From assembly GCA_049523315.1 (NCBI GenBank), contig JBEKMZ010000004.1:15980-79979 (forward strand): a stretch of DNA of 64,000 bases. Direction: 5' to 3'. Each line of letters begins with the position of its first letter. The stretch's first letter is position 1. This document shows positions 37,394 to 50,561 of the stretch, piece after piece. The translations under genes and the position numbers were made by a program. The notes beneath the pieces are model-generated. The model was not told where the DNA came from. It ran no database searches and worked only from the letters and a program-made list of their open reading frames with translations. The stretch is from Acidimicrobiales bacterium. GTDB taxonomy: Bacteria; Actinomycetota; Acidimicrobiia; Acidimicrobiales; Bog-793.

Positions 37394-38151
37394 CACCCTG
37401 GGTCGCAGCCCTGCGGCGCTCACATGACACCTTGGCGCTCCTCGTCGGGCCGCTCGGCACCGAGGAGCTGCAACGGCGTTCTTACGACTCGGAATGGTCG
37501 ATAGCCCAAGTGCTCTCACACCTCGGGTCCCAGTCAGAGATATTCGGCCTCTTCCTCGAGGCAGGGTTGAGCAGGCAGGACCCGCCCGGAGGCGAGGTGT
37601 TCGCCCCGATATGGGAAGCCTGGAACACCCGCGACCCGCAGTCACTGGCGACCGGCACCTTGAAGGCGAGCGAGACAGTGGTAGGCCGCTTTGAGTCCCT
37701 GACTCCAGACGAGATCGAAAGGTTCCACTTGAACCTGTTCGGGATGGAGCTCGACGCGACCGGGCTGAGCCGGCTGCGCCTCAGCGAGCTTGCTCTTCAC
37801 ACCTGGGACGTCGCGGTGGCTCTTGATCCCACGGCCAAGGTCCTCCCCGACGCGGTCGCTCTGCTCGTCGACACCCTCGGACAGCTGGCCGCGAGAGGCG
37901 GCAAGCCCGACGGGACCATTCGGCGCGTGCTCGTGACTACGACAGAGCCCGAGCGCCACTTCATCCTCGAGACGGGCGAAACCGTGGTCCTCACTGCCTC
38001 TGGTCCCGACGCGGGCGAGGCCGGGCTGTCGCTTCCCGCTGAGGCATTCGTTCGCCTCCTGTATGGCCGCCTCGATCCCGCCCACACTCCGGTGCTCGAG
38101 GTCCGGGGCATCGATCTCGACGAGCTGCGGCGGGTGTTCCCGGGCATCTGA
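37378..38151 (+). CDS. DinB/maleylpyruvate-isomerase-N-terminal (mycothiol-dependent enzyme family) protein
   Basis: '[44 protein letters not shown]' is the DinB_2-type four-helix N-domain with the His of the metal site, as I recognise it. Confidence 0.7.
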
Positions 38152-38405
38152 GCACGAGCGGGCCCTCGCAGGCCTCGAGAAGCTCGAGGACGAGGCCGTC
38201 GCGGCTTGGCGGGGTTGCTGCAACTGAGACGGGACGTCCTCGGTGCGGGCGTCGCTGGAGGCGCACACCAGGCCGACAATTCTCCAGGATCTCGGCCATT
38301 CGGGCGGCCAACGCGAGCGGACGCCTCATAGTCAGGTGAGTGCAGATGTCCGGGCCGGGCGCCCCTGGGCAGCTTCAAGCCTCGCCGATCGCTACCGTGA
38401 CATAC

Positions 38406-40175
38406 ATGAGCAGTGCACCGCGGCGGCGGCGCGCGGCTTCGTACCGATCCCTCTGGCGGCTGCGGAGCTACGTTCGGCCTTACACGCCCCAGATGCTGGC
38501 CATGTTGGCGTGCGCGACGCTAGCCGTGGCGGCCAGCACGCTGATCCCGCTCGTGCTCGAGGCAGTGGTGAACGGGCCTATTCACCGAGGCGACCGCGGC
38601 GCGCTCGTGCCGATGTTCCTGATCGCCCTCGGTCTTGGTGTCGCAGAGGCCAGTTTGATTGTGGGGCGACGCCGGGTCCAGTCCGTTGCCATCCAGAACA
38701 TCGAGCGGGAGATCCGCAACGGGATGTACGCCCGGCTGCAAAGGCTGCCAATCGAGTTCCACGACCGGTGGCAGACTGGCCAGCTCCTTTCCCGGACCAC
38801 GACCGATCTCGGCACCATCAGGCGCTTTTTGGGCTTCGGCGCCATCTTCTTGGTCGTCGACGCCATGCAGTATCTCGCCGTGATGGCGCTTCTGGTCGCG
38901 ACCTATCCGCCGCTTGGGACCCTGGCGGTGGTGACGACCCTGCCGGTGATCTGGATCGCCCAGCGCTTCGGGGCCGGATACTCGCGGATCTCACGTCGCC
39001 TTCAGGACCAGCAGGGTGACCTCGCGACTCTTACCGAAGAAGCAGCCAGCGGCATGCGGGTCGTCAAGGCCTTCGGGCGCGGTCGCCTGATGCAGGACCG
39101 CTTCGGCGCTTCGGCCCGCACGCTTCGCGGATCTGCTCTCGAGATGGTGCAGTTGCGGGCCCGTTTCTGGGGATTGCTCACGCTCGTCCCCAACGTGACG
39201 ATGGCCTTTTCCGTGCTGATCGGGGGTATAGCCGTCGCCCGCGGGGCGCTGTCGCTCGGAGCCCTCGTCGCCTTCACGACCCTGCTCGTCCTGGTGCAGT
39301 TCCCGATCATCGACCTCGGCTGGATACTGTCGATGGCCCAAGAGGCGGCGACGGCGGCAGATCGGGTCTACGAGGTCTTCGATGCGGCAATGGTCGTCGA
39401 CGACCGGCCAGGCGCGACCGCGCTCGTGGCCTCAAGAGGGCGTCTTTGCTTCGAGCACGTCAGCTTCTCCTACCCGGACAGGCGCGAACCGGTGCTGCGC
39501 GACGTCAATCTCACAATCGAGCCCGGCGAGACGGTGGCGATCGTCGGCCTGACGGGTTCGGGCAAGAGCACGCTGGCGTGTCTTCCCAGTCGCTTGTACG
39601 ACGTCAGCTCCGGACGCGTCACCCTCGACGGGCACGACGTGAGGGACATGACGCTCGAGTCGCTGCGGCGCCATGTGGCGGTCGTCTTCGAGGAGCCCGT
39701 CCTGTTCTCTATGAGCGTTCGCGAGAACCTCGTTCTCGGCCGTCCCGACGCCTCCGAGTCCGCGATCGCCGAGGCGCTGGAGCTCGCCCAGGCGGGCTTC
39801 GTCGCCGAGCTGCCCTGGGGCTTGGACACGCGCATCGGAGAGCAGGGAATGGCTCTTTCGGGAGGGCAACGCCAGCGCCTCGCCCTCGCCCGCGCCGTGC
39901 TCGCCCGTCCTTCGGTGCTAGTGCTCGACGACCCGCTCTCGGCCCTCGACGTGAGCACCGAGGCCCTCGTCGAGGAGAGCCTGAGAAGAGTGCTGCGAGA
40001 CATGACGGGTCTTCTCGTCGTCCACCGGCCTTCGACGGTCGCGCTCGCGGACCGGGTCGCCTTGTTGCGCAGCGGGGTTCTCGTCGCCTTCGGGACCCAT
40101 CACGAGCTGATGGAGAGGCCCGACTACGCGTCCGTCCTGTCTGTTGACTACCAGGGCTCGAGGACCAGCCCATGA
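38406..40175 (+). CDS. ABC exporter, fused permease-ATPase (half-transporter 1)
   Basis: A six-TM N-domain, then 'GLTGSGKST' (Walker A), 'LSGGQRQRLALARA' (signature) and 'VLVLDDPLSALD' (Walker B). The start is taken at 'MSSAPRRRR'. Confidence 0.9.
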   Translation: MSSAPRRRRAASYRSLWRLRSYVRPYTPQMLAMLACATLAVAASTLIPLVLEAVVNGPIHRGDRGALVPMFLIALGLGVAEASLIVGRRRVQSVAIQNIEREIRNGMYARLQRLPIEFHDRWQTGQLLSRTTTDLGTIRRFLGFGAIFLVVDAMQYLAVMALLVATYPPLGTLAVVTTLPVIWIAQRFGAGYSRISRRLQDQQGDLATLTEEAASGMRVVKAFGRGRLMQDRFGASARTLRGSALEMVQLRARFWGLLTLVPNVTMAFSVLIGGIAVARGALSLGALVAFTTLLVLVQFPIIDLGWILSMAQEAATAADRVYEVFDAAMVVDDRPGATALVASRGRLCFEHVSFSYPDRREPVLRDVNLTIEPGETVAIVGLTGSGKSTLACLPSRLYDVSSGRVTLDGHDVRDMTLESLRRHVAVVFEEPVLFSMSVRENLVLGRPDASESAIAEALELAQAGFVAELPWGLDTRIGEQGMALSGGQRQRLALARAVLARPSVLVLDDPLSALDVSTEALVEESLRRVLRDMTGLLVVHRPSTVALADRVALLRSGVLVAFGTHHELMERPDYASVLSVDYQGSRTSP

Positions 40176-41998
40176 GCGCGCACGAGGCGTGGCGCGGCAT
40201 AGCGGCCGAACAAGTCGAAGAGGTCCCTCAGGCCTGGACTGGACTGCTCCGCCGCCGCACCCGCCACCTGCTGGGATCTCTCGCCGCGCCCCACCGTCGG
40301 GCGATCGGCTGGCTCGCAGGCGCCATCTTGGTCTCCAACCTCGCCGGCACGGCGATTCCCTACCTGGTCGGGCTCGGGATCGACCGCGGGGTGAGTGCGG
40401 TGCGCCACGACGACTACATGCCGATCAGCGTCATCACCGCGCTGATCCTTGTCTGCGCGGTCGCCCAGGCCATCTTGTACAGGGTCTTCGTCGCCGGCTC
40501 CGGCCGTATCGGTCAGGAGATCCTGCTCGAGCTGAGGGAGAGGGTCTTCGGGCAGTTCCAGCGTCTCAGCCTCGCTTTTCACGAGCGGTACACCACGGGC
40601 CGGATGATCTCGCGCCTCACTTCGGACCTCGAGTCGATCAACGACATGTTCACCCTCGGCCTCGACACGCTCATCAACGCGGTGCTGTCGGTCGTGAGCG
40701 TCGGCGTCATCCTCCTCGTCTTGGACCTTCCGCTCGGCCTCGTCTGCCTGTCGGGGTTCATCCCGCTTTTCTTCTTGTCCCGCTGGTACCAACGCGAGTC
40801 GACGAAGGCCTACCGCAACACGAGAAACGCCATGGCACTGGTGATCGTCCACTTCACCGAGTCGTTGCGGGGTATCCGGGCGGTGCACGCCTTCAGGCGC
40901 CAGCCGCGCAACGACGAGCTGTTCGGTCACCTTTCGGAGGGCTACCGGGCTGCGATGAGCAGGTCGTTCCAGCTCCTCGGCATCTACTGGCCGGGAATCG
41001 TGCTCGTAGGCAACCTGACGACCGCGGCCGTGCTCCTTTACGGCGGCAACAGGGTAATCGGTCACGAGATGCAGGTCGGCGTGCTGGCGGCCTTTGTCCT
41101 GTACCTCCGCCGGTTCTTCGAGCCGCTTGGCGAGGTGAGCCAGTTCTACGACTCCTTCCAGGCAGCAGCGGCCGGGCTCGAGAAGTTGGCCGGCGTGCTC
41201 GACGAGACCCCGGGCGTGCCGATGCCCGCTCACGGCGTCGCGATCCCTGAAGAAGGGCTGAAAGGAGTCGTCGAGTTCCGCAGCGTCCGCTTCGGGTATA
41301 GGCACGGGACCGACATCCTGTCATGCTTCGACCTCCACATAGCGGCCGGGCAGACCGTCGCCTTGCTCGGGGCGACGGGAGCCGGCAAGAGCACGGTCGC
41401 ACGCCTGCTCGCCCGTTTTTACGATCCGCTCGAAGGAGAGGTTTCCATCGACGACATCTCCCTGGCGGCGATGGACGAGACCTCGCTCCACCGGGCTGTC
41501 GCCATGGTGACCCAGGAGAGTTTCCTGTTCTCGGGCAGTCTGGCCGAGAACATCGCCTTCGGCTCCCCGGCCGCGAGCGATTCGGAGATCGCCTCCGCCG
41601 CCCGCGCGGTCGGTGTCGACTCGATCGCGGAGGCGCTCGGCGGCGGATACGAGAGTGACGTCGGCAAGCAGGGCTCGCGCCTGTCGGCAGGGCAACGTCA
41701 GCTCGTTGCCCTGTCTAGGGCGATGCTCGCCAACCCGGCTGTTCTCGTCCTCGACGAGGCGAGCTCGTCGCTCGACGCCCCGATGGAGCGGCTCGTCCAG
41801 TCCGCCCTCAAGACGGCTCTCGCGGGCCGGACGGCGGTGATCATCGCTCACCGGCTCTCCACGGTCGAGATCGCCGATCGAGTCGTAGTGATCGAGTCCG
41901 GCCAGATCGTTGAGGACGGCCCACCTGCGCAGTTGCTCGTTGAGGGATCGGGCCATTACGCCGCGCTTCACGAGGCCTGGCGCTCGAGCCTCGTCTGA
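40172..41998 (+). CDS. ABC exporter, fused permease-ATPase (half-transporter 2)
   Basis: An ATGA overlap joins it to the upstream partner. Motifs are 'GATGAGKST', 'LSAGQRQLVALSRA' and 'VLVLDEASSSLD'. This is a heterodimeric type I exporter arrangement. Confidence 0.9.
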   Translation: MSAHEAWRGIAAEQVEEVPQAWTGLLRRRTRHLLGSLAAPHRRAIGWLAGAILVSNLAGTAIPYLVGLGIDRGVSAVRHDDYMPISVITALILVCAVAQAILYRVFVAGSGRIGQEILLELRERVFGQFQRLSLAFHERYTTGRMISRLTSDLESINDMFTLGLDTLINAVLSVVSVGVILLVLDLPLGLVCLSGFIPLFFLSRWYQRESTKAYRNTRNAMALVIVHFTESLRGIRAVHAFRRQPRNDELFGHLSEGYRAAMSRSFQLLGIYWPGIVLVGNLTTAAVLLYGGNRVIGHEMQVGVLAAFVLYLRRFFEPLGEVSQFYDSFQAAAAGLEKLAGVLDETPGVPMPAHGVAIPEEGLKGVVEFRSVRFGYRHGTDILSCFDLHIAAGQTVALLGATGAGKSTVARLLARFYDPLEGEVSIDDISLAAMDETSLHRAVAMVTQESFLFSGSLAENIAFGSPAASDSEIASAARAVGVDSIAEALGGGYESDVGKQGSRLSAGQRQLVALSRAMLANPAVLVLDEASSSLDAPMERLVQSALKTALAGRTAVIIAHRLSTVEIADRVVVIESGQIVEDGPPAQLLVEGSGHYAALHEAWRSSLV

Positions 41999-42005
41999 GG
42001 ACGAT

Positions 42006-42039
42006 TGCCCGGGTCCGCAGTGCAATCATGACCCGGGCA
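42006..42039 (+). terminator. Perfect 10-bp stem hairpin after the ABC exporter operon
   Basis: 'TGCCCGGGTC' (42006-42015) pairs with 'GACCCGGGCA' (42030-42039) around a 14-nt loop, 8 nt after the stop. There is no U-tract. It is followed directly by the palindrome TGACAAATGTCA (42040-42051). Confidence 0.45.
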
Positions 42040-42110
42040 TGACAAATGTCACGAAGAAGTCGTGAGTCAACGCACTGTGCGAACTTCGCAGTCGCTGCCA
42101 AGATCGAGCC

Positions 42111-43241
42111 ATGGCTACTTACGACGATCAGCCCAACGGCATAAGCCTTCTCGCGCTCAGCAAGTCCTACGGCGAAGTCCGGGCCGTACGGGGGATCGAG
42201 TTGTCCATCGCCGCCGGTGAGACAGTGGCCCTGCTCGGACCCAACGGGGCGGGCAAGACGACGACGATCGACATGGTGCTAGGACTCACCCGACCCGACA
42301 AGGGAAGCGTGTCGGTGTCCGGCCTCTCGCCCGCCGAAGCGGTCAAGGCCGGAGCCGTTGGGGGGATGCTCCAGACCGGGCAGCTCATCGAGTACCTAAG
42401 TGTCCGCGAGCTCATCACGATGGTCGCCTCGCTTTACCGTCATCCGCTCGGGGTGGACGACACGCTCCGCCTGACCGGCATCGACGACATCGCCGACCGG
42501 TGGGAGACGAAGCTTTCCGGGGGCCAGACCCAGCGAGTGCGCTTCGCGATCGCGCTTGTTGCCGACCCGGACCTGCTCGTTCTCGACGAGCCGACGGCGG
42601 CGCTAGACGTCGAGGGTCGCCGGGACTTTTGGACCGCGATGCGGGCGGTTGCCTCTAGAGGAAAGACCGTCCTGTTCGCGACGCACTACCTCGAGGAGGC
42701 AGATGCCTATTCGGACCGCGTCATCCTCATGGCCCGGGGCCGTGTCGTCGCCGATGGTCCTCCTACCGAGATCAAGGCGAAGGTCGGGGGCAAGACCATC
42801 CGCACCACTCTTCCCAGCGCGGATCTGGGCGTGCTCGGCAGCTTGCCCGGCGTGGCCAAGGTCGAGGGGCGCGGCGACGCAGTGACACTGTCATGCCTCG
42901 ACTCCCAGTCGTCTGACTCGGCGCTTCGCGAGCTGCTCATGCGGTTTCCTGAGGCGCGCGACCTAGAAGTGCGCGGCGGCGGGTTGGAAGAAGCCTTCTT
43001 GGAACTTGCCGCCGATGAACTCGCCGCGAGCGCCCTCGCCGATGGCGTGTCGCCCATCACCGCCCGCGAGCGCGACGTGCTCGTGGCCGCTCGTCCCGGA
43101 GCCACGGTCTCGGAGATCGCCGAGCGCCTCTTTCTTTCCGAGGGGACGGTCCGCAACTACCTCTCCGCCGCGATCGCGAAGACGGGAGCCCGCAAGCGCG
43201 CCGAGGCGGTCCGCACAGCCGACGGGCAGGGGTGGCTCTAG
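42111..43241 (+). CDS. ABC-2/DrrA-type ATPase fused in frame to a NarL/LuxR-type HTH (GerE) domain
   Basis: Residues 1-300 form a complete ATPase ('GPNGAGKTT', 'LSGGQTQR', 'LLVLDEP', 'ATHYLEEA', ending 'LEEAFLELA'). Residues ~313-376 read 'SPITARERDVLVAARPGATVSEIAERLFLSEGTVRNYLSAAIAKTGARKRAEAVRTADGQGWL', the C-terminal effector domain of a response regulator. No permease, kinase or receiver domain is nearby. Confidence 0.8.
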   Translation: MATYDDQPNGISLLALSKSYGEVRAVRGIELSIAAGETVALLGPNGAGKTTTIDMVLGLTRPDKGSVSVSGLSPAEAVKAGAVGGMLQTGQLIEYLSVRELITMVASLYRHPLGVDDTLRLTGIDDIADRWETKLSGGQTQRVRFAIALVADPDLLVLDEPTAALDVEGRRDFWTAMRAVASRGKTVLFATHYLEEADAYSDRVILMARGRVVADGPPTEIKAKVGGKTIRTTLPSADLGVLGSLPGVAKVEGRGDAVTLSCLDSQSSDSALRELLMRFPEARDLEVRGGGLEEAFLELAADELAASALADGVSPITARERDVLVAARPGATVSEIAERLFLSEGTVRNYLSAAIAKTGARKRAEAVRTADGQGWL

Positions 43242-43347
43242 GTGATCTGCGTGGACTTATTCCCCGAGAGCCGATAAGGTTTCCATACTGTTACGAACTG
43301 GGGGCAAACGGGTGCCCTTAGTCAACTCGATTAGGAGGGGAGTTTTC

Positions 43348-44568
43348 ATGAGGAAATTGCTCATGAAGGCCGGTGTGCCGCTCGTCGCGGGAGCACTTGT
43401 GCTCACCGCTTTCAGCGGAGCGGCGTTCGCGAACGCCAAGCATCCGGCCACCGCAAAGCCAGTCTTCGAGCTCGCGTACGAAGGGCCGCTTTCGGGTGGC
43501 AACGCTGTGCTCGGCCTGGACCAGACCTACGCGGTCCAGTACGCCATCAACCAAGCGAACTCCGGGATGTCCCAGTTCGGCAAGCTTCCCTTCACGCTCA
43601 AGTACGTCGGTAAGGACGACCAGGGCTCGGGGACGCTGTCGCCGACCGATGCCCAGGAGCTCACGGCGACCCCAGCCGTCATCGGTGTTGTCGGGCCGGC
43701 TTTCTCGGGCGCCACCAAGGCAGCCGAGCCGACGTTCAGCTCTCATGACCTTGCGACCGTGAGCCCCTCGGCGAGCCTGCCTGCCCTTGCCGACTACGGA
43801 TGGAAGAACTTCTTCCGGGTCATCCCGGACGACGACGTCCAGGGACCGGCCGACGCCCTCTACGTCGACCAGAAGCTCCACCTGAGCAAGCTGTACGTCG
43901 TCAGCGATGCCAGCACCTACGGCGTCGGCCTGGCCAACGCCTTTGCCTCCCAGGCCAGGAAGGACGGCGCCACGGTCACGAGCGGCGTGTTCCCGGGCAC
44001 GACACAGTGCAGCGACGGCACGGCGAGCCCCACGCAGTACCCAGATGACGCCGCCATTGTCGTCAAGGCGCACCCGCAGCTGCTGTTCTACGCCGGTTAC
44101 TACTGCGACCTCGGCTTGCTTCTCACAGCGCTCCACAAGGCGGGCTACATGGGCAAGGTGTTCAGCGACGACGGCAGCGACTCCGGCGCGCTCGTTAAGG
44201 CAACTAACCCGTCCAGCGCGGCGAACGGCGTGTACGCCAGTTGCGGGTGCGCGGTGCTCGGCACGACCAAGGCTGACAAGGCGTTCGCGGCAGGCTTCAA
44301 GGCTCTCGCGCGTATCGCCCCGGCCGTCTACTCGGCTGAGTCGTTCGACGCGGCGAACACGATCATCGACGAGCTCAAGATCCTCGCATCCGAGAAGGGC
44401 GGAACGATGAACATCACTCGTGAGAACGTCGTCAAAGGCCTTCACAAGATCAGCTTCATCGGCCTCACCAAGACGATCTCGTTCAAGGCTAACGGGAATA
44501 TCGCGGCGACGAAGATCTACCTCAACGTGGTGCAGCACGGCGCCTTCGTCCAAATCGGAGTCGAGTAG
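43348..44568 (+). CDS. Branched-chain amino acid ABC transporter substrate-binding protein (LivJ/K-like)
   Basis: The signal peptide is 'MRKLLMKAGVPLVAGALVLTAFSGAAFA'. The body shows a type I periplasmic-binding fold pattern ('VIGVVGPAFSGATKAA', 'LYVVSDASTYGVGLA'). An SD 'AGGAGGGGA' lies upstream. Confidence 0.9.
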   Translation: MRKLLMKAGVPLVAGALVLTAFSGAAFANAKHPATAKPVFELAYEGPLSGGNAVLGLDQTYAVQYAINQANSGMSQFGKLPFTLKYVGKDDQGSGTLSPTDAQELTATPAVIGVVGPAFSGATKAAEPTFSSHDLATVSPSASLPALADYGWKNFFRVIPDDDVQGPADALYVDQKLHLSKLYVVSDASTYGVGLANAFASQARKDGATVTSGVFPGTTQCSDGTASPTQYPDDAAIVVKAHPQLLFYAGYYCDLGLLLTALHKAGYMGKVFSDDGSDSGALVKATNPSSAANGVYASCGCAVLGTTKADKAFAAGFKALARIAPAVYSAESFDAANTIIDELKILASEKGGTMNITRENVVKGLHKISFIGLTKTISFKANGNIAATKIYLNVVQHGAFVQIGVE

Positions 44569-44592
44569 CACCTCTAAGCGGCTGTTGAGGAA

Positions 44593-44628
44593 CCGGGCAC
44601 TTCGCAATAGCGAGGTGCCCGGTTTTTT
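44593..44628 (+). terminator. Rho-independent terminator/attenuator after livJ
   Basis: A 13-bp stem 'CCGGGCACTTCGC'/'GCGAGGTGCCCGG' (one G-U pair) with an AATA loop, followed by TTTTTT (44623-44628). This is a rare canonical terminator in this GC-rich window. Confidence 0.75.
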
Positions 44629-44694
44629 GTCTTGGGTACTCCGTCTGAGACTGAGTAACCTGCTGCCCAAGGTTGAGGGGAGTGATCTGGACGC

Positions 44695-45642
44695 ATGCAT
44701 TGCCCGGCGTTCATCGCGAACAACAACATCTGGGTTTCGCTCGTCGTTGGGGGCCTCGCCAACGGGTTCCTCTACGCGCTCATCGCCCTCGGTTACACCC
44801 TTGTATACGGTGTCCTCAGGCTGATCAACTTCGCCCACTCCGAGGTGGTCATGTCCGGCGGCTTCGGTGGCCTGTTCGCCATGCGGGCCATCCTCGGCTC
44901 GTCCACCCCGTCCGGCTTCTGGGCGGTCGGGTTCATGCTCGTCGGCATCGTCGCAGGTGCGGCTGCCGGGGGCGCGGCCGCGTTCGTCCTCGAGCGGGTC
45001 GCCTACAGGCCACTGCGAAGGCGCAACGCCCCGAGGTTGACCTACCTCATCAGCGCAATCGGGGCCTCCTACTTCCTCTACAACCTCGCCGGCAAGGAGT
45101 TCGGGCGCTACACGGCTTTCATACCGACGCCGCAGGTGATAACCGGGCACGCCTTCTTCCTCTGCGGGGTCGGTGTCCAGTCCGTCTGGATCCTCACGAT
45201 GGTCACCGCTCTCGTGCTGCTGGTCGTGCTCGACACCGTCGTGAACCGCACCAAGCTCGGCAAAGGCATCCGTGCGGTCGCGCAGGACGCCGAGACGGCG
45301 AGCCTCATGGGCGTTCACATCGACCGCACGATCGCGCTCACCTTCGTGCTCGGCGGCCTCATGGGCGGCGCGGCCGGGTTCCTGTTCGGCCTCCAGTTCG
45401 GCGTGATCTACACGATGGGCTTCGTCCCGGGCCTCAAGGCCTTCACCGCCGCCGTCCTCGGAGGCATCGGCAACATCCGCGGGGCCATGATCGGCGGTCT
45501 CATGCTCGGCGTCTTCGAGAGCATCCCGCTGCGCTGGATGTCGGCGGAATGGCAGGACGTCGTCGCCTTCGGGGTGCTCGTGACGCTGTTGCTCTTCCGC
45601 CCGACGGGCATCCTCGGCGAGCGACTGGGGAGGGAGGCATGA
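44695..45642 (+). CDS. livH: Branched-chain amino acid ABC transporter permease
   Basis: 'LANGFLYALIALGYTLVYGVLRLINFAHSEVVMSG' and 'AVAQDAETASLMGV' are the LivH signature. Confidence 0.9.
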   Translation: MHCPAFIANNNIWVSLVVGGLANGFLYALIALGYTLVYGVLRLINFAHSEVVMSGGFGGLFAMRAILGSSTPSGFWAVGFMLVGIVAGAAAGGAAAFVLERVAYRPLRRRNAPRLTYLISAIGASYFLYNLAGKEFGRYTAFIPTPQVITGHAFFLCGVGVQSVWILTMVTALVLLVVLDTVVNRTKLGKGIRAVAQDAETASLMGVHIDRTIALTFVLGGLMGGAAGFLFGLQFGVIYTMGFVPGLKAFTAAVLGGIGNIRGAMIGGLMLGVFESIPLRWMSAEWQDVVAFGVLVTLLLFRPTGILGERLGREA

Positions 45643-47783
45643 GCGCTACGAGCGCGGGCATCGAGGGCCGACCCGACCCCCGGCCCGCCGGTGCCCGTGA
45701 CCGCTCGCTCTCGGCACAGCTCGCCTCGCTCGGTGCCAACCCCTTGATACGCCGGCTCGCCATGTGCCTGTTGGGCGTCTTGGTGGTGGCCGTCATGACC
45801 GGCCCCCCGGGCACCAACGCCGCCCCAACATCGGGCTTCACAGGTGCGCTGCAGTTCCCGCGCTTGTTCTGGTTCCTCGGTGCCGGCGCGGTGATCTTCG
45901 CCCTCATCACCCTCTCGCAGACGATGGGAACGGCAGCTAGCGCGTGGGCCAACCGGGCCCGGACATATCTGCGCAGCCTGACGGCGCGCCGCCTCGTTCG
46001 CCTGGCGCTCGATCTGGTCGTCGTCCTGGCGGGCTTTGTCTGGGTGTCGTGGATCTCGCCGAAGGACACCTGGAAAGGAGGTCTCTGCCTAGAGATCGGC
46101 TTTGCCTTCGCGGCGATGGAGCTTGTCGTCTACCTCTTCGAGTCGAGGTCCTTGCGGACAGCGAGGCTCGGTGGCTACGCGTTGGTTGCCGTCTACGGAG
46201 CGCTGGCGTGGATGCACAACCCGGTGTCGAAGTACCTCAACTCGATCCAGGCAGTGCCCCACGACCGGACCCTCGGGGTGCTGCTGTTGTGGATCGGCCT
46301 TGCGTTCATCGTGCTCGAGGGCTTGCTGTGGGTCCTGGCGCTCGCCCGCAAGGCGATCGAGCCCCGGCGGGGCAGGGGGCTCCTCAGCCTCGGTGCCCTC
46401 GTCCTGCTCGCTTACGGATGGTTGATGTGGACGCACTGGTACGGCTGGCGCGCCTCGACGCCGCACTCGGTGGCGCACTGGTTCGCGTCGATCCATCTCA
46501 TTCCCCATTCCAACGAGGGTGGTCTCGCCGTCATGAGCGTCGGTGCGATCGCGTTGATATGCGCCGCCGCCTGGGTGGCTGTGGACCTCGTTCGCGCGAT
46601 CGGGGGGGCTCGGCCCGGGCGCGCCCGGTACGAGTTCACCGGGATCACCAAGCAGGCGAGGTTCTCCTTCGGCAAGACCTCGATCACCCTCGCGGCCCTG
46701 CTGATCGCGATCCAGTGGCCTTTGCACATGAACGCCGGCATCCAGTCGATCCTCACGACCCAGGTCGCGATCTATGTCCTTCTCGCCATGGGCCTCAACG
46801 TCGTCGTCGGCTTCGCGGGTCTTCTCGACCTCGGCTATGTGGCGTTCTGGGCGATCGGTGCGTACTCGACGGCTTATTTCACCGGGGCGCTTCCCATCCA
46901 ACCGCCGTTCATACTCAATCCCTTCTGGATCATCCCCTTCGCCATCGCAGCCGCGATGCTGACCGGCGTCCTCCTCGGGACACCCACCTTGCGCCTTCGC
47001 GGGGACTATCTCGCCATCGTGACTCTGGGCTTCGGAGAGATCATCGAGATCATCGCCAACAACCTCGACGGGATCACGGGCGGGCCGGCCGGCACGCCGG
47101 GAGTCATACCGCAGTTCTCGGTGCATTTCGCCTCGGTCTCCTACAACTGGACCGGGACGGTGCTGCCTTACTACTACCTGATACTCGGGGTGGCGGTCAT
47201 CTTCACGGTGGCGTTCAGCTTCCTCGAGCACTCCCGCGTGGGGCGGTCCTGGACAGCCATCCGTGAGGACGAGGTGGCGGCCGATTCCATGGGCATCAAC
47301 GCCCTTAAGTACAAGGTCATGGCTTTCTCGATCGGCGCCTCGACGTCCGGGTTCGCCGGGGTGTTCTTTGCGAGCCAGGTGCAAAGCCTCGTGCCGAACG
47401 ACTTCATCGTCCAGACCTCGATCCTTATCCTCGTCTTCGTGATCTTCGGAGGCATGGGCTCGATCGCGGGGGCGGTGGTCGGCGCCTTCGTGATCCAGTG
47501 GCTGCCTCAGTACCTGCAGGTCCGCTCCTTCCAGGACTACCAGTTCCAAGACGAGTTCATCTATCTCGGGGCTCTTTTGATCCTGCTCATGATCTTTCGG
47601 CCGCAGGGGATCATCCCCTCCCGCCGCCGGCGCAGGGAGATCCTGCTCACCGAGGAAGGCGTCGGCCATGCCGAGAGCCCGGGCGGGCCGGTGCGGCTTA
47701 CCTCCATGGGTGAGGAGCTGCCTTCGGACTACGGCAAGCTGTCGCTCGACGAGCCTGGCTACATAGGCCCGGAGACCCGATGA
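45639..47783 (+). CDS. livM: Branched-chain amino acid ABC transporter permease with ~380-aa N-terminal polytopic extension
   Basis: An ATGA overlap joins it to livH. The canonical LivM core starts near 'VAIYVLLAMGLNVVVGFAGLLDLGYVAFWAIGAY' (about residue 390) and includes 'AIREDEVAADSMGIN'. About eight predicted TM segments precede it. Confidence 0.9.
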   Translation: MSATSAGIEGRPDPRPAGARDRSLSAQLASLGANPLIRRLAMCLLGVLVVAVMTGPPGTNAAPTSGFTGALQFPRLFWFLGAGAVIFALITLSQTMGTAASAWANRARTYLRSLTARRLVRLALDLVVVLAGFVWVSWISPKDTWKGGLCLEIGFAFAAMELVVYLFESRSLRTARLGGYALVAVYGALAWMHNPVSKYLNSIQAVPHDRTLGVLLLWIGLAFIVLEGLLWVLALARKAIEPRRGRGLLSLGALVLLAYGWLMWTHWYGWRASTPHSVAHWFASIHLIPHSNEGGLAVMSVGAIALICAAAWVAVDLVRAIGGARPGRARYEFTGITKQARFSFGKTSITLAALLIAIQWPLHMNAGIQSILTTQVAIYVLLAMGLNVVVGFAGLLDLGYVAFWAIGAYSTAYFTGALPIQPPFILNPFWIIPFAIAAAMLTGVLLGTPTLRLRGDYLAIVTLGFGEIIEIIANNLDGITGGPAGTPGVIPQFSVHFASVSYNWTGTVLPYYYLILGVAVIFTVAFSFLEHSRVGRSWTAIREDEVAADSMGINALKYKVMAFSIGASTSGFAGVFFASQVQSLVPNDFIVQTSILILVFVIFGGMGSIAGAVVGAFVIQWLPQYLQVRSFQDYQFQDEFIYLGALLILLMIFRPQGIIPSRRRRREILLTEEGVGHAESPGGPVRLTSMGEELPSDYGKLSLDEPGYIGPETR

Positions 47784-48625
47784 CCGACGCCGCGCCCGAA
47801 CGCTCGCCGCTAGAGACGACCGAGGTCGTCTTCGACATCGAGAAGGTGACTCTGCGCTTTGGCGGGGTCACGAGCCTTGCCGATGTCTCGCTCAAGTTGC
47901 ACCAGGGCGAGATCCTGTCAGTGATCGGCCCGAACGGGGCGGGCAAGACCTCCCTTTTCAACTGCCTGACCGGTGTCTACACGCCCCAGGAAGGCACGAT
48001 CGTTTTCACCCCGAAAGACGGGCACCCGGTGAGCGTGATCGGCCGCAAGCCCTACAAGGTGAACCGGCTCGGGGTAGCGAGGACCTTCCAGACCTCCCGC
48101 ATGTTCAACGCGCTGACGACTTTCGAGAACGTGAAGATTGGCGTCGAGTCAAAGCAGCATACGGGACCGATCGGGGCGATGCTCCGGCTGCCCCGCACCC
48201 GGCGCGAGGAGCACCAGAGCGACTTGAGGACGCTCGAGCTTTTGAAATTCGTCGGGCTCACAAGACGGGCGAACGAGCTCTCGAGCTCACTGCCCTACGG
48301 GGACCGACGGCGCCTCGAAATCGCCCGGGCACTCGGGACGAACCCCGAGGTGCTCTTGTTGGACGAGCCTGCCGCGGGGACGAACCCGGCCGAGAAGGTC
48401 GAGCTCGCCGAGCTGATCCGCAAGGTGAACAAGCAGCTCGGTGTCACAGTGCTGCTGATCGAGCACGACATGAAGCTTGTGATGTCGGTGGCAGAGCGGA
48501 TCATCGTGTTGAACTTTGGCCAGGTGATCGCACAAGGCTCCCCGGCCGAGATACAAAGGGACCCGGTCGTGATCAACGCCTATCTGGGCTCGCCTGATGA
48601 CGACGCCGCGACGGAGCAAGCCTGA
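47780..48625 (+). CDS. livG: Branched-chain amino acid ABC transporter ATP-binding protein
   Basis: 'GPNGAGKTSLFN', 'LPYGDRRRLEIARAL' and 'LLLDEPAAG'. An ATGA overlap joins it to livM. Confidence 0.9.
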   Translation: MTDAAPERSPLETTEVVFDIEKVTLRFGGVTSLADVSLKLHQGEILSVIGPNGAGKTSLFNCLTGVYTPQEGTIVFTPKDGHPVSVIGRKPYKVNRLGVARTFQTSRMFNALTTFENVKIGVESKQHTGPIGAMLRLPRTRREEHQSDLRTLELLKFVGLTRRANELSSSLPYGDRRRLEIARALGTNPEVLLLDEPAAGTNPAEKVELAELIRKVNKQLGVTVLLIEHDMKLVMSVAERIIVLNFGQVIAQGSPAEIQRDPVVINAYLGSPDDDAATEQA

Positions 48626-49341
48626 TGGCGATGCTCGATGTCACCGGCGTGGAGGTCCGTTACGGAGCCGTCCCGGCTCTGCACGACTTCACAATCTCTG
48701 TCGAGAAAGGAGAGATCGTCACCCTGCTCGGCGCGAACGGCGCCGGCAAGACGACCACGCTCCGGATGATCTCGGGGCTGCACCACGCCTCCTCGGGCAC
48801 GGTCCGCTTCGAGGGCGTCGACATCTCGCGTTTCGCGGCGCACAGGACCGTCGAGCTCGGGATCAGTCACGTTCCCGAGGGCCGGCGGATCTTCCCGCAG
48901 ATGACTGTGCTCGAGAACCTCGAGATAGGTGCCTACCACAAGCAGCACGGCCAGAACACCAAGCTTGACGAGGTCTACGAGCTCTTCCCGATCCTGAAGG
49001 ACCGTCGTAAGCAGCAGGGAGGCAACCTCTCCGGGGGCGAGCAGCAGATGCTCGCCATCGGGCGGGCCCTTATGGCTGAGCCGAGGTTGTTGCTCCTGGA
49101 CGAGCCTTCGATGGGGCTGGCCCCGCTCTTCGTGCAGACGATCTTCGAGATCCTGAAGACGATCCGCGAGCAGGGGGTCACGGTCTTGCTGGTCGAGCAG
49201 AACGCGGCCAAGGCCCTGCAGTTGGCCGATCGGGGTTATGTGCTCGAGAACGGGAGGATCGTGCTCCAGGACTCCGCCGCGACCTTGCTGCGCGACGACC
49301 GGGTGCGAATGGCCTATCTTGGCGAGGACATCGGGCACTGA
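48625..49341 (+). CDS. livF: Branched-chain amino acid ABC transporter ATP-binding protein
   Basis: 'GANGAGKTTTL', 'LSGGEQQMLAIGRAL' and 'LLLLDEPSMGLAP'. Confidence 0.9.
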   Translation: MAMLDVTGVEVRYGAVPALHDFTISVEKGEIVTLLGANGAGKTTTLRMISGLHHASSGTVRFEGVDISRFAAHRTVELGISHVPEGRRIFPQMTVLENLEIGAYHKQHGQNTKLDEVYELFPILKDRRKQQGGNLSGGEQQMLAIGRALMAEPRLLLLDEPSMGLAPLFVQTIFEILKTIREQGVTVLLVEQNAAKALQLADRGYVLENGRIVLQDSAATLLRDDRVRMAYLGEDIGH

Positions 49342-49394
49342 GACAGCGCCCGATGTCTGCCGGGCCATTCACCTAGCGGTGATGCAGTGACACG

Positions 49395-50561
49395 ATGTCT
49401 GTCATGATCCCTGTTAAGTCGTCCCGGCTCCGCTCTTGGTTGTCGGGCGGCGTCGGGCTCGTCTTTGCAGCGGCCATCGTCGCATCTGCACCCGCCAGGG
49501 CCGTTGCCACCGCCTCGAGGGTGGCCGCGCGCACCCCGACAGTGTGGCTCTGCAGGCCGGCAATGGCCGACGACCCGTGCAGCACGAGCCTCGCGACGAC
49601 GGTCGTGCAGGCCTCGGGGGCAAGATCGGTCACGAGCGCAAAGCCCGCCACGGCCTCGAGGTTCGACTGCTTCTACGTCTATCCCACCGTCAGCGAGGAG
49701 ACCTCCCTGAACGCGGATCTGAGGGTGCAGAAGTCCGAACGTGCCGTAGCGGTCGCCCAGGCCTCACGTTTTTCCACCGTCTGCCGGGTCTGGGCGCCGA
49801 TGTATCGCCAGATCACCCTGGCGGGTCTCGAGACGGTTCCGATCGGGACCTCACCGGTCATCGAGACTGCCTACGACAGCATCCGGGCGGGTTTCGAGGA
49901 CTATCTGGCGCACGACAACCACGGTCGGCCGATCGTGTTCATCGGCCACTCCCAGGGCGCGGCGATGTTGATCATGCTGCTCGAGCACTTCGTCGACGAG
50001 AACGCCGCCTTGCGTCGCCGGCTCGTGCTGGCGGTCATCCTCGGCGGCAACGTGGTCGTGCACATTGGCGCGCTCACAGGCGGCAGCTTCAGGCACATTC
50101 CGCTGTGCACGGCACTGGGGGAAACAGGTTGTGTGATCGCCTACTCGAGCTTCCCGGGCGAGCCTCCTTTTGCCTCGCTCTTCGGGAGGCCGGGTCAGGG
50201 TGTCTCGCTCCTGTCCGACCAGCTGACGAGGCGCGGCGAGCAGGTCGCCTGCGCCAACCCTGCAGCCCTTGGCGGCGGCAGCGGCGCCCTCTTGGCGTAC
50301 TTCCCCTCCGATGGCCTCGAGGCGACGCCGTGGGTGGAGTACCCGAAGCTCTACAGCGCGCGCTGTGAGAGCGCAGGCGGGGCGACCTGGCTCCAGGTCA
50401 CCAAGGCGTCTGGCGCCACGGACCATCGCGTTGTCGTGACCGAGACAGATGGGCCGGACTGGGGATATCACCCTTATGACGTCAACCTTGCCCTCGGCAA
50501 CCTCGTCGCAGACGCCGCCCGCGCGGAAGCGTCGTGGTCCGAGGCCGCCGGCCGTAACTAG
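49395..50561 (+). CDS. Secreted DUF3089-like alpha/beta hydrolase
   Basis: A signal-like N-terminus, then 'FDCFYVYPTVS', 'VWAPMYRQITL' and 'IVFIGHSQGAAMLIMLL' (GxSxG nucleophile elbow), the pattern I recognise as DUF3089. Confidence 0.7.
   Translation: MSVMIPVKSSRLRSWLSGGVGLVFAAAIVASAPARAVATASRVAARTPTVWLCRPAMADDPCSTSLATTVVQASGARSVTSAKPATASRFDCFYVYPTVSEETSLNADLRVQKSERAVAVAQASRFSTVCRVWAPMYRQITLAGLETVPIGTSPVIETAYDSIRAGFEDYLAHDNHGRPIVFIGHSQGAAMLIMLLEHFVDENAALRRRLVLAVILGGNVVVHIGALTGGSFRHIPLCTALGETGCVIAYSSFPGEPPFASLFGRPGQGVSLLSDQLTRRGEQVACANPAALGGGSGALLAYFPSDGLEATPWVEYPKLYSARCESAGGATWLQVTKASGATDHRVVVTETDGPDWGYHPYDVNLALGNLVADAARAEASWSEAAGRN

Follow-up and report, generated by a model that had tools for sequence, protein, structure and literature searches.

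The Lnr proteins of Bacillus subtilis comprise a HisKA_3 kinase, a NarL-type regulator and an ATP-binding cassette (ABC) transporter of the ABC-2 type. Similar modules are yvfRSTU of B. subtilis and ragABKR of Streptomyces, the latter with its genes in the order ATPase, permease, kinase, regulator; a literature search on ragABKR gave no match. An ABC ATPase and a LuxR-type regulator also come together in Escherichia coli, where MalK controls the activator MalT by direct contact; MalT and the large ATP-binding LuxR (LAL) regulators form old conserved families built on an NTPase of the STAND/AAA type. In the LnrJK-LnrLMN detoxification module of B. subtilis, the two-component system is needed to induce the transporter promoter (PMC7472640), and regulators of the DesR/VraR type are activated through receiver-mediated dimerisation (PMC5758874). 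Here we describe a 64-kb stretch of contig JBEKMZ010000004.1 from an uncultured Acidimicrobiales bacterium (the window), in which a single open reading frame (ORF) fuses an ABC-2-type ATPase to the DNA-binding part of a DesR-type regulator. It was found that this fusion was produced by an in-frame deletion inside a four-gene operon, and the deletion could be mapped to the base.

The chimeric ORF lies at 42111-43241 on the + strand, starts with ATG and encodes 376 amino acids followed by a stop codon. In NCBI it is MGA3351864.1, located on a 107-kb contig of a metagenome-assembled genome (MAG) and deposited as 'ATP-binding cassette domain-containing protein'. The ORF list and Pfam analysis assigned to it an ABC-2/DrrA-type ATPase, the linker of a DesR-type regulator and a GerE helix-turn-helix (HTH) domain. 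ABC_tran matched residues 27-163 (E=6.8e-25, 88.7 bits), and the motifs of the nucleotide-binding domain (NBD) were all found, namely Walker A GPNGAGKTT (43-51), the Q-loop (87-91), LSGGQ (135-139), Walker B LLVLDEP (155-161), the D-loop (163-166) and the H-loop (H192), together with LEEAFLEL at 292-299. The DrrA1-3_C domain (PF13732) scored 25.1 bits over residues 216-299, just below its cut-off of 27.4, and this region could be aligned one to one with relatives bearing a precomputed PF13732 match. The top NCBIfam model was the drrA subfamily TIGR01188, under its curated cut-off, and the closest solved structures to the NBD belonged to the ABCA family. GerE (PF00196) matched residues 315-370 with E=3.2e-11 and 43.1 bits, against a gathering cut-off of 23.5. 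A preliminary description of the window, made from its letters, had proposed a complete ABC-2-type ATPase joined in frame to the linker and GerE domain of a DesR/LiaR-type regulator; the presence of ABC_tran with every motif and a GerE match above the Pfam threshold bore this out, the description having named the lack of such a match as grounds for refutation.

The two parts of the ORF, both on the + strand, could be delimited by comparison with the closest relative, L001 (GCA_964574625.1). Codons 1-303 (42111-43019) hold the NBD and a probable DrrA-like C-terminal domain and were 82% identical in amino acids to the 313-aa ATPase of L001; codons 304-376 and the stop codon (43020-43241) correspond to ancestral residues 129-201 and were 96% identical to the L001 regulator. 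The latter part consists of alpha6/linker and the four-helix GerE domain, while the ancestral receiver (residues 1-128) is gone. Pfam gave no Response_reg match in the fusion, and the phospho-acceptor Asp was lost with regulator codons 1-128. As the preliminary description had noticed, permease, kinase and receiver are missing from the locus: no homologue of any of them was detected by tblastn in the whole window.

The contig of L001 is colinear with the window on either side of the ORF. Its genes run in the order DinB-like gene, two ABC exporters, ATPase (313 aa), ABC-2 permease (244 aa), HisKA_3 kinase (384 aa) and REC+GerE regulator (201 aa), and then LivK, LivH, LivM, LivG and LivF. In L170 the order and neighbours are those of L001 from the two ABC exporters onward, with module sizes of 313-314 aa for the ATPase and 201-202 aa for the regulator in the two loci, and in L172 the four-gene module is intact but the neighbourhood differs. 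Blastn against these three loci placed the deletion junction at 43019|43020 (feature 43018-43021), GAA|CTC, that is, E303|L304 at a codon boundary. Window 38379-43018 aligned with L001 6268-10908 and window 43020-49997 with L001 13239-20226, and the window end points against L170 and L172 were identical to those against L001. The DNA missing from the window amounted to 2330 bp relative to L001, 2328 bp relative to L170 and 2326 bp relative to L172. Regulator codon 129 follows ATPase codon 303 immediately and in frame, with no filler bases and with no recognisable microhomology, the comparators being only ~80% identical. The residues of the window across the junction read ...LEEAFLELAADE|LAASALADGVSPITARERDVL..., where the ATPases of the relatives end in LELTADDDPDEDLVKGP or in LELTADENEDD... 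before the stop codon, and their regulators read ...GERVVDPVLAASALADGESPFTARERDVL.... The losses comprised the last ~10 ATPase codons, the entire permease, the entire kinase and the receiver domain of the regulator. The ATPase-derived part therefore lacks only the final ~10-11 codons of the ancestral gene, and about 10 native C-terminal residues have been replaced by 73 residues of a transcription factor. The preliminary description had suspected a clean in-frame deletion in an ATPase-permease-kinase-regulator locus, and this was established by the base-exact junction and by comparison with three relatives whose module is intact, two of which also share the flanking genes; the junction falls inside the interval 43008-43050 that had been estimated, but the expected size of 2.5-3 kb was too large, the actual deletion being 2.33 kb.

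The intact four-gene arrangement is the ancestral state. The permease is the gene directly after the ATPase in 78 of 80 species-representative loci, and members of Acidimicrobiia, Thermoleophilia and Actinomycetes share the order ATPase-permease-kinase-regulator. Neither these 80 loci nor 80 metagenome loci matched the query past about residue 337, and there was no fusion among them. These scans of genome and metagenome collections also yielded no relative above 75% identity, and the deletion can therefore be dated only to after the split from L001. The L001 regulator aligned end to end with B. subtilis DesR (4ldz, E=3e-46), implying that the lost two-component system was DesK/DesR-like.

These comparisons place the fusion between several described systems. 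Residues 1-303 form a complete NBD as in the ABC-2 (DrrA/NodI-type) ATPases, followed by a probable DrrA-type C-terminal domain; unlike these ATPases, the fusion has no permease beside it or anywhere in the window. Residues 304-376 are the linker and GerE domain of the DesR/LiaR/VraR branch, and the ancestral kinase was of the HisKA_3 type, as in DesK-DesR; the fusion differs from that branch in having neither receiver nor phospho-acceptor Asp nor kinase. The intact ancestral module resembles LnrJK-LnrLMN in genetically coupling a two-component system to an ABC transporter, whereas the window keeps only the first and last thirds of that module, in one polypeptide. In having an ATPase followed by a C-terminal LuxR/GerE HTH, the fusion is superficially like the MalT/LAL regulators, but its N-terminal domain is ABC_tran and not STAND, it is a deletion product of a single lineage, and Pfam detected no MalT/LAL homology in it beyond the HTH.

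The junction was also found outside the deposited genome. The identical 376-aa protein was present on eight contigs from at least six samples in JGI assemblies and in Logan assemblies of public runs, six places being listed (JGI 3300040944, 3300085322, 3300040957 and 3300041416; Logan SRR13201562 and SRR13202123), and these contigs differed from the window by 0-2 single-nucleotide polymorphisms (SNPs) per 3-7 kb. A ninth contig from another sample, L003, crosses the junction with one SNP; over 1,264 bp the single difference was A>G at window position 43141 (L003 position 811), corresponding to E344G. The two break-point regions share no repeat. Because the same junction stood on independent contigs and no repeat was common to the break points, mis-assembly at the junction is very unlikely; the preliminary description had named a chimeric assembly as the circumstance that would undo its reading, and the recurrence of the junction in independent assemblies from several samples spoke against it. 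A search of 5.8 billion protein clusters revealed no intact allele above 82% identity and nothing between 82% and 100%. The only other protein of the same architecture in that search was P0001, a 291-aa fragment of the same gene, and the other top matches, from 82% identity downward, were ordinary ABC-2 ATPases of ~310 aa from MAGs of Acidimicrobiales and other Actinomycetota. The fused allele is thus real, and it is the sole allele known for the lineage.

Upstream of the ATG by 71 nt, the window carries the inverted repeat TGACA-AA-TGTCA (TGACAAATGTCA, 42040-42051), with 5-bp arms and a 2-nt spacer. In the window alone, its occurrence was at chance level (1 match at no more than one mismatch, 0.91 expected), so that it becomes significant only through comparison with other loci. 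The repeat was unchanged in the window, L001 and L170. Allowing one mismatch, it was found within 160 nt upstream of the ATPase start in 50 of the 57 related loci in which kinase or regulator genes follow, with a modal position of -72/-71, but in only 2 of 55 loci without two-component genes, each examined over at least 3.5 kb of downstream sequence; the background was 0.9% of 170-nt windows, and the Fisher test gave p=1.4e-21, a value inflated because the loci are phylogenetically related. In the VraR/DesR branch, the DNA-binding domains attach to inverted repeats as dimers (PMC5758874), and inverted-repeat binding goes together with frequent autoregulation (PMC4447274). Since the conserved repeat fits this behaviour (PMC4447274; PMC5758874), it is probably the operator of the DesR-like regulator. 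The proposal of the preliminary description that a palindrome upstream of the ORF might be its operator thus gained support from the locus counts, although the element is of the 5-2-5 form and not a perfect 12-mer palindrome.

An alignment of 69 distinct upstream regions anchored on the repeat revealed two further conserved blocks on the + strand at fixed spacing from it (42062-42078): GTGAG at +22 (42062-42066 in the window) and GCACTAC at +32, the latter being GCACTGT in the window (42072-42078). These blocks look like promoter parts, judged by their conservation and spacing. A sigma-70 scan found no promoter on the + strand, and an Rfam scan of the whole window gave no match, indicating that the leader blocks are not a known RNA element. 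The combination TGACA-N2-TGTCA, GTGAG and GCACTAC marks the module in several actinobacterial classes (related loci L001-L163), and the region 42040-42078 likely comprises the regulator operator and promoter elements. By comparison with the relatives, the fusion gene has kept this ancestral control region intact. A hairpin at 42006-42039 (+ strand), retrieved by inverted-repeat search, starts 8 nt past the stop codon of the upstream ABC exporter gene and has perfect 10-bp arms, a 14-nt loop, a predicted RNA folding energy of -23 kcal/mol (z=-2.7) and no U-tract. Its arms are as perfect as the preliminary description had stated, but it was not conserved: it is absent from L001 and L170 and hence lineage-specific, which ruled it out as a regulatory element of the fusion gene. 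A terminator scan did not call it, and at best it may be a terminator of the upstream exporter gene.

To see how often this architecture occurs, a HMMER scan with fusion residues 216-376 was run against 1.84 billion cluster representatives, and the best 150 were examined. No second full-length ATPase+GerE protein was among them; the architecture was confined to a single 90%-identity cluster of two sequences, the 376-aa protein and the fragment P0001. In the same best 150 representatives, at least 11 other in-frame chimeras of the start of a homologous ATPase and the end of the homologous regulator were found, each with its own junction (P0123, P0155, P0163, P0169, P0170, P0176, P0207, P0223, P0251, P0261 and P0264, with L176 5001-5501 as a locus of this kind). 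Mostly 50-170 ATPase residues were left in them (1-62 in P0123, 1-85 in P0169, 1-~105 in P0261 and 1-~167 in P0176), and most had lost essential ATPase motifs, so that the recurring domain pair is explained by deletion and not by shared function. P0169 lies on a 143-kb contig of NCBI assembly GCA_000962825.1 and has a degenerate copy of the operator at -72. A few kinase-regulator and permease-regulator chimeras and regulators with internal receiver deletions were also seen. Because a protein-level search detects in-frame products only, the number of chimeras says nothing about selection. Judging from the sequences compared, ABC_tran+GerE recurs as a deletion scar and not as a family, and the novel ATP-driven regulator that the preliminary description had offered as an alternative was not found as a family: there was no second full-length example, and the ATPases of the other chimeras were truncated.

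Other remnants of the module were observed as well. L010 (6001-7836) retains the ATPase and an intact regulator but only a stub of 22 aa of the permease, and L009 (6001-8467) the ATPase, the permease and a kinase stub of ~50 aa joined to the regulator; comparison of the two gave omega values of 0.20 for the ATPase and 0.07 for the regulator, that is, purifying selection. Among the best 150 representatives, the regulator was fused more often to the ATPase (at least 11) than to the kinase (3) or to the permease (2), although of these genes the ATPase lies farthest from it; clustering or ascertainment bias may account for this excess, as may a preference for deletions that take out the two membrane proteins together. 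P0140 (291 aa) shows the reverse order, with an N-terminal receiver (regulator residues 3-127) ahead of the C-terminal domain of the ATPase (ATPase residues 216-304), which, given the gene order, would require a duplication junction and not a deletion. Unusual tandem arrays of 3-10 GerE-like stretches, akin to the HTH of the fusion, were noted in the long proteins P0136 (3371 aa), P0220 (2854 aa), P0160 (1084 aa), P0254 (584 aa), P0210 (534 aa) and P0126 (464 aa).

Taken together, the data show the following history. The ancestor carried an operon of ABC-2 ATPase, ABC-2 permease, HisKA_3 kinase and DesR-type NarL-family regulator, with the probable operator TGACA-N2-TGTCA some 71 nt ahead of it. 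On one side the operon was flanked by two ABC exporter genes, on the other by an operon for a liv-type amino-acid transporter. A single deletion of ~2.33 kb removed the ATPase end, the permease, the kinase and regulator codons 1-128, and because the junction was in frame a single 376-aa protein resulted. Its product would be signal-blind: with the transmembrane partner, the kinase and the phospho-acceptor Asp gone, the fusion would no longer sense the signal of the ancestral module. The promoter and operator that were kept probably still drive transcription of the gene, and at most the receiver-less HTH might bind the operator, either weakly or in a constitutive manner. Activation in the DesR branch proceeds through alpha1-alpha5 dimerisation of the receiver (PMC5758874), which is impossible in the fusion, so the protein is expected to bind the operator only weakly unless its ATPase domains dimerise. 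The ATPase half would be an orphan with no demonstrated role. We consider it probable that the fusion is a deletion remnant without a new ATP-dependent mechanism, residual operator binding included. Most likely it is a fairly recent, non-adaptive and not-yet-decayed remnant of module loss; this part is less secure than the deletion origin itself, which nothing contradicted.

Several observations weigh against a non-adaptive remnant. The ratio of nonsynonymous to synonymous substitution rates (dN/dS) relative to L001 was 0.13 in the ATPase part and 0.05 in the HTH part, both values falling within those spanned by the adjacent genes. With L170 as outgroup, 19 changes in the ATPase part were unique to the window and 20 to L001, and in the HTH part one was unique to the window and none to L001. 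The ORF is intact, the ATPase motifs are all preserved, and the operator and upstream blocks are untouched. In L009 and L010, constraint on the regulator (omega 0.07) in the absence of a complete kinase showed that remnants of the module can stay useful. With 103 mixed outgroups, 20 derived changes were counted for the window and 13 for L001, and at ATPase sites at least 89% conserved there were 5 substitutions on the window branch and 1 on that of L001, differences that were suggestive without reaching significance; given the 19 and 20 changes obtained with the syntenic outgroup L170, relaxed constraint on the ATPase is not claimed. The sole window-specific HTH change is N362K, at a position where 96% of 47 homologues have Asn. 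It falls where the last helix begins, and in the NarL/FixJ DesR/VraR family this helix contributes a contact between DNA-binding domains in the dimer (PMC5758874). E344G of L003 affects a Glu that is 98% conserved in 47 regulator homologues, in the recognition-helix region. These two changes hint at relaxed constraint on the HTH, as far as conservation can tell. The rate data as a whole are as compatible with a very recent deletion as with continued selection, and population data are silent on selection after the deletion, because the fused lineage is near-clonal.

The most far-reaching alternative is that the fusion has become an ATP-gated regulator, in which head-to-tail, ATP-dependent dimerisation of the NBDs replaces phospho-receiver dimerisation and brings two GerE domains onto TGACA-N2-TGTCA. 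In its favour, the two halves are complete and no catalytic motif is missing, the break points coincide with domain boundaries and leave a linker of ~15 residues, the cognate operator and upstream blocks have been retained, and the low dN/dS is accompanied by no acceleration of rate; since DesR/VraR types dimerise through the receiver (PMC5758874), a substitute dimeriser is conceivable. Against this, no search returned a second full-length ATPase+GerE protein, the ATPases of the other chimeras are crippled, so that deletion alone explains the architecture, an in-frame outcome has a prior of ~1 in 3, the near-clonal lineage gives no sign of post-event selection, and N362K and E344G strike highly conserved HTH positions. 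We regard ATP gating as improbable. Another possibility is that the receiver-less HTH is constitutively active, independently of any signal, and holds a wider regulon or its own promoter switched on, with the ATPase as an N-terminal passenger that merely supplies a promoter and start codon. That the regulator part starts exactly at the linker with a whole GerE domain, that the operator was kept, that this DNA-binding domain occurs in many independent receiver-less derivatives with varied N-terminal leaders, and that the kinase-less regulator of L009/L010 stays constrained are all consistent with it. The only repeat match in the window, however, lies upstream of the fusion gene itself, so no wider regulon is visible; DesR/VraR types require receiver dimerisation for activation (PMC5758874); the chimera number is uninformative on selection, in-frame products alone being detectable; and N362K sits in the dimer-contact region of the DNA-binding domain. 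We regard a physiologically relevant constitutive HTH as unlikely, though less so than ATP gating, and this estimate overlaps with the residual operator binding already included in the deletion-remnant reading.

Two further explanations concern the junction itself and the direction of change. If the junction were an assembly or binning chimera, it would be a mis-join of two real genes, and metagenome assemblies do yield chimeric joins. An exact 45-nt junction search of the JGI metagenome contig collection gave no match, but this was uninformative, because the collection evidently lacks the junction contigs later found by exact-protein look-up. The eight contigs from at least six samples, the ninth with its one SNP, kilobases of colinearity with relatives on either flank, break-point regions without a common repeat to mislead an assembler and the absence of an intact allele of the lineage from the protein collection leave very little room for this explanation. 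The reverse history, in which the fused gene is ancestral and the relatives were split by insertion of permease and kinase, has only formal possibility in its favour. The phylogenetic distribution refutes it: several actinobacterial classes share the four-gene order and have separate 310-aa ATPases, the fusion is confined to a single near-clonal lineage that nests among relatives with the intact genes, and the regulators of the relatives have complete receivers homologous to DesR. We attach virtually no probability to it.

Differences were also noted in the neighbouring genes. In L001, L002 and L174/L175 the DinB-like gene and the first ABC exporter are separated by a hemerythrin gene, which the window lacks; at 38151-38379 the window has 228 bp where L001 (4951-6268) has 1,317 bp, a second difference in gene content near the fusion. 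The LivK-like binding protein (43312-44568) showed 52 window-specific amino acid changes compared with 22 in L001 (L170 as outgroup, binomial p=0.001), whereas changes in the adjacent LivH and LivG were balanced between the window and L001. The excess in LivK could reflect accelerated evolution or recombination in a substrate-binding protein. The LivM-like permease (~45639-47783) has 714 aa (713 in L001, 711 in L170), about twice the usual LivM length, owing to a long multi-helix N-terminal extension conserved in the relatives.

The locus thus represents a natural operon collapse, in which a four-gene transporter/two-component module became one chimeric gene with break points mapped to the base. 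For annotation it serves as a warning that ABC_tran+GerE architectures in databases are to be read as deletion scars. If the fusion is active, one deletion can turn a phosphorylation-controlled regulator into a differently gated one, which would be relevant to regulator evolution and synthetic biology; were the ATP-gated reading true, nature would have rewired a two-component output in a single step into a one-component regulator that senses nucleotides. Of all the results, the conserved putative operator and the evidence of repeated module erosion are the most reusable: TGACA-N2-TGTCA, ~72 nt upstream of the ATPase gene, is a marker of a widespread actinobacterial module and a testable candidate operator, and the ATPase-permease-kinase-regulator module is repeatedly eroded by internal deletions in nature.

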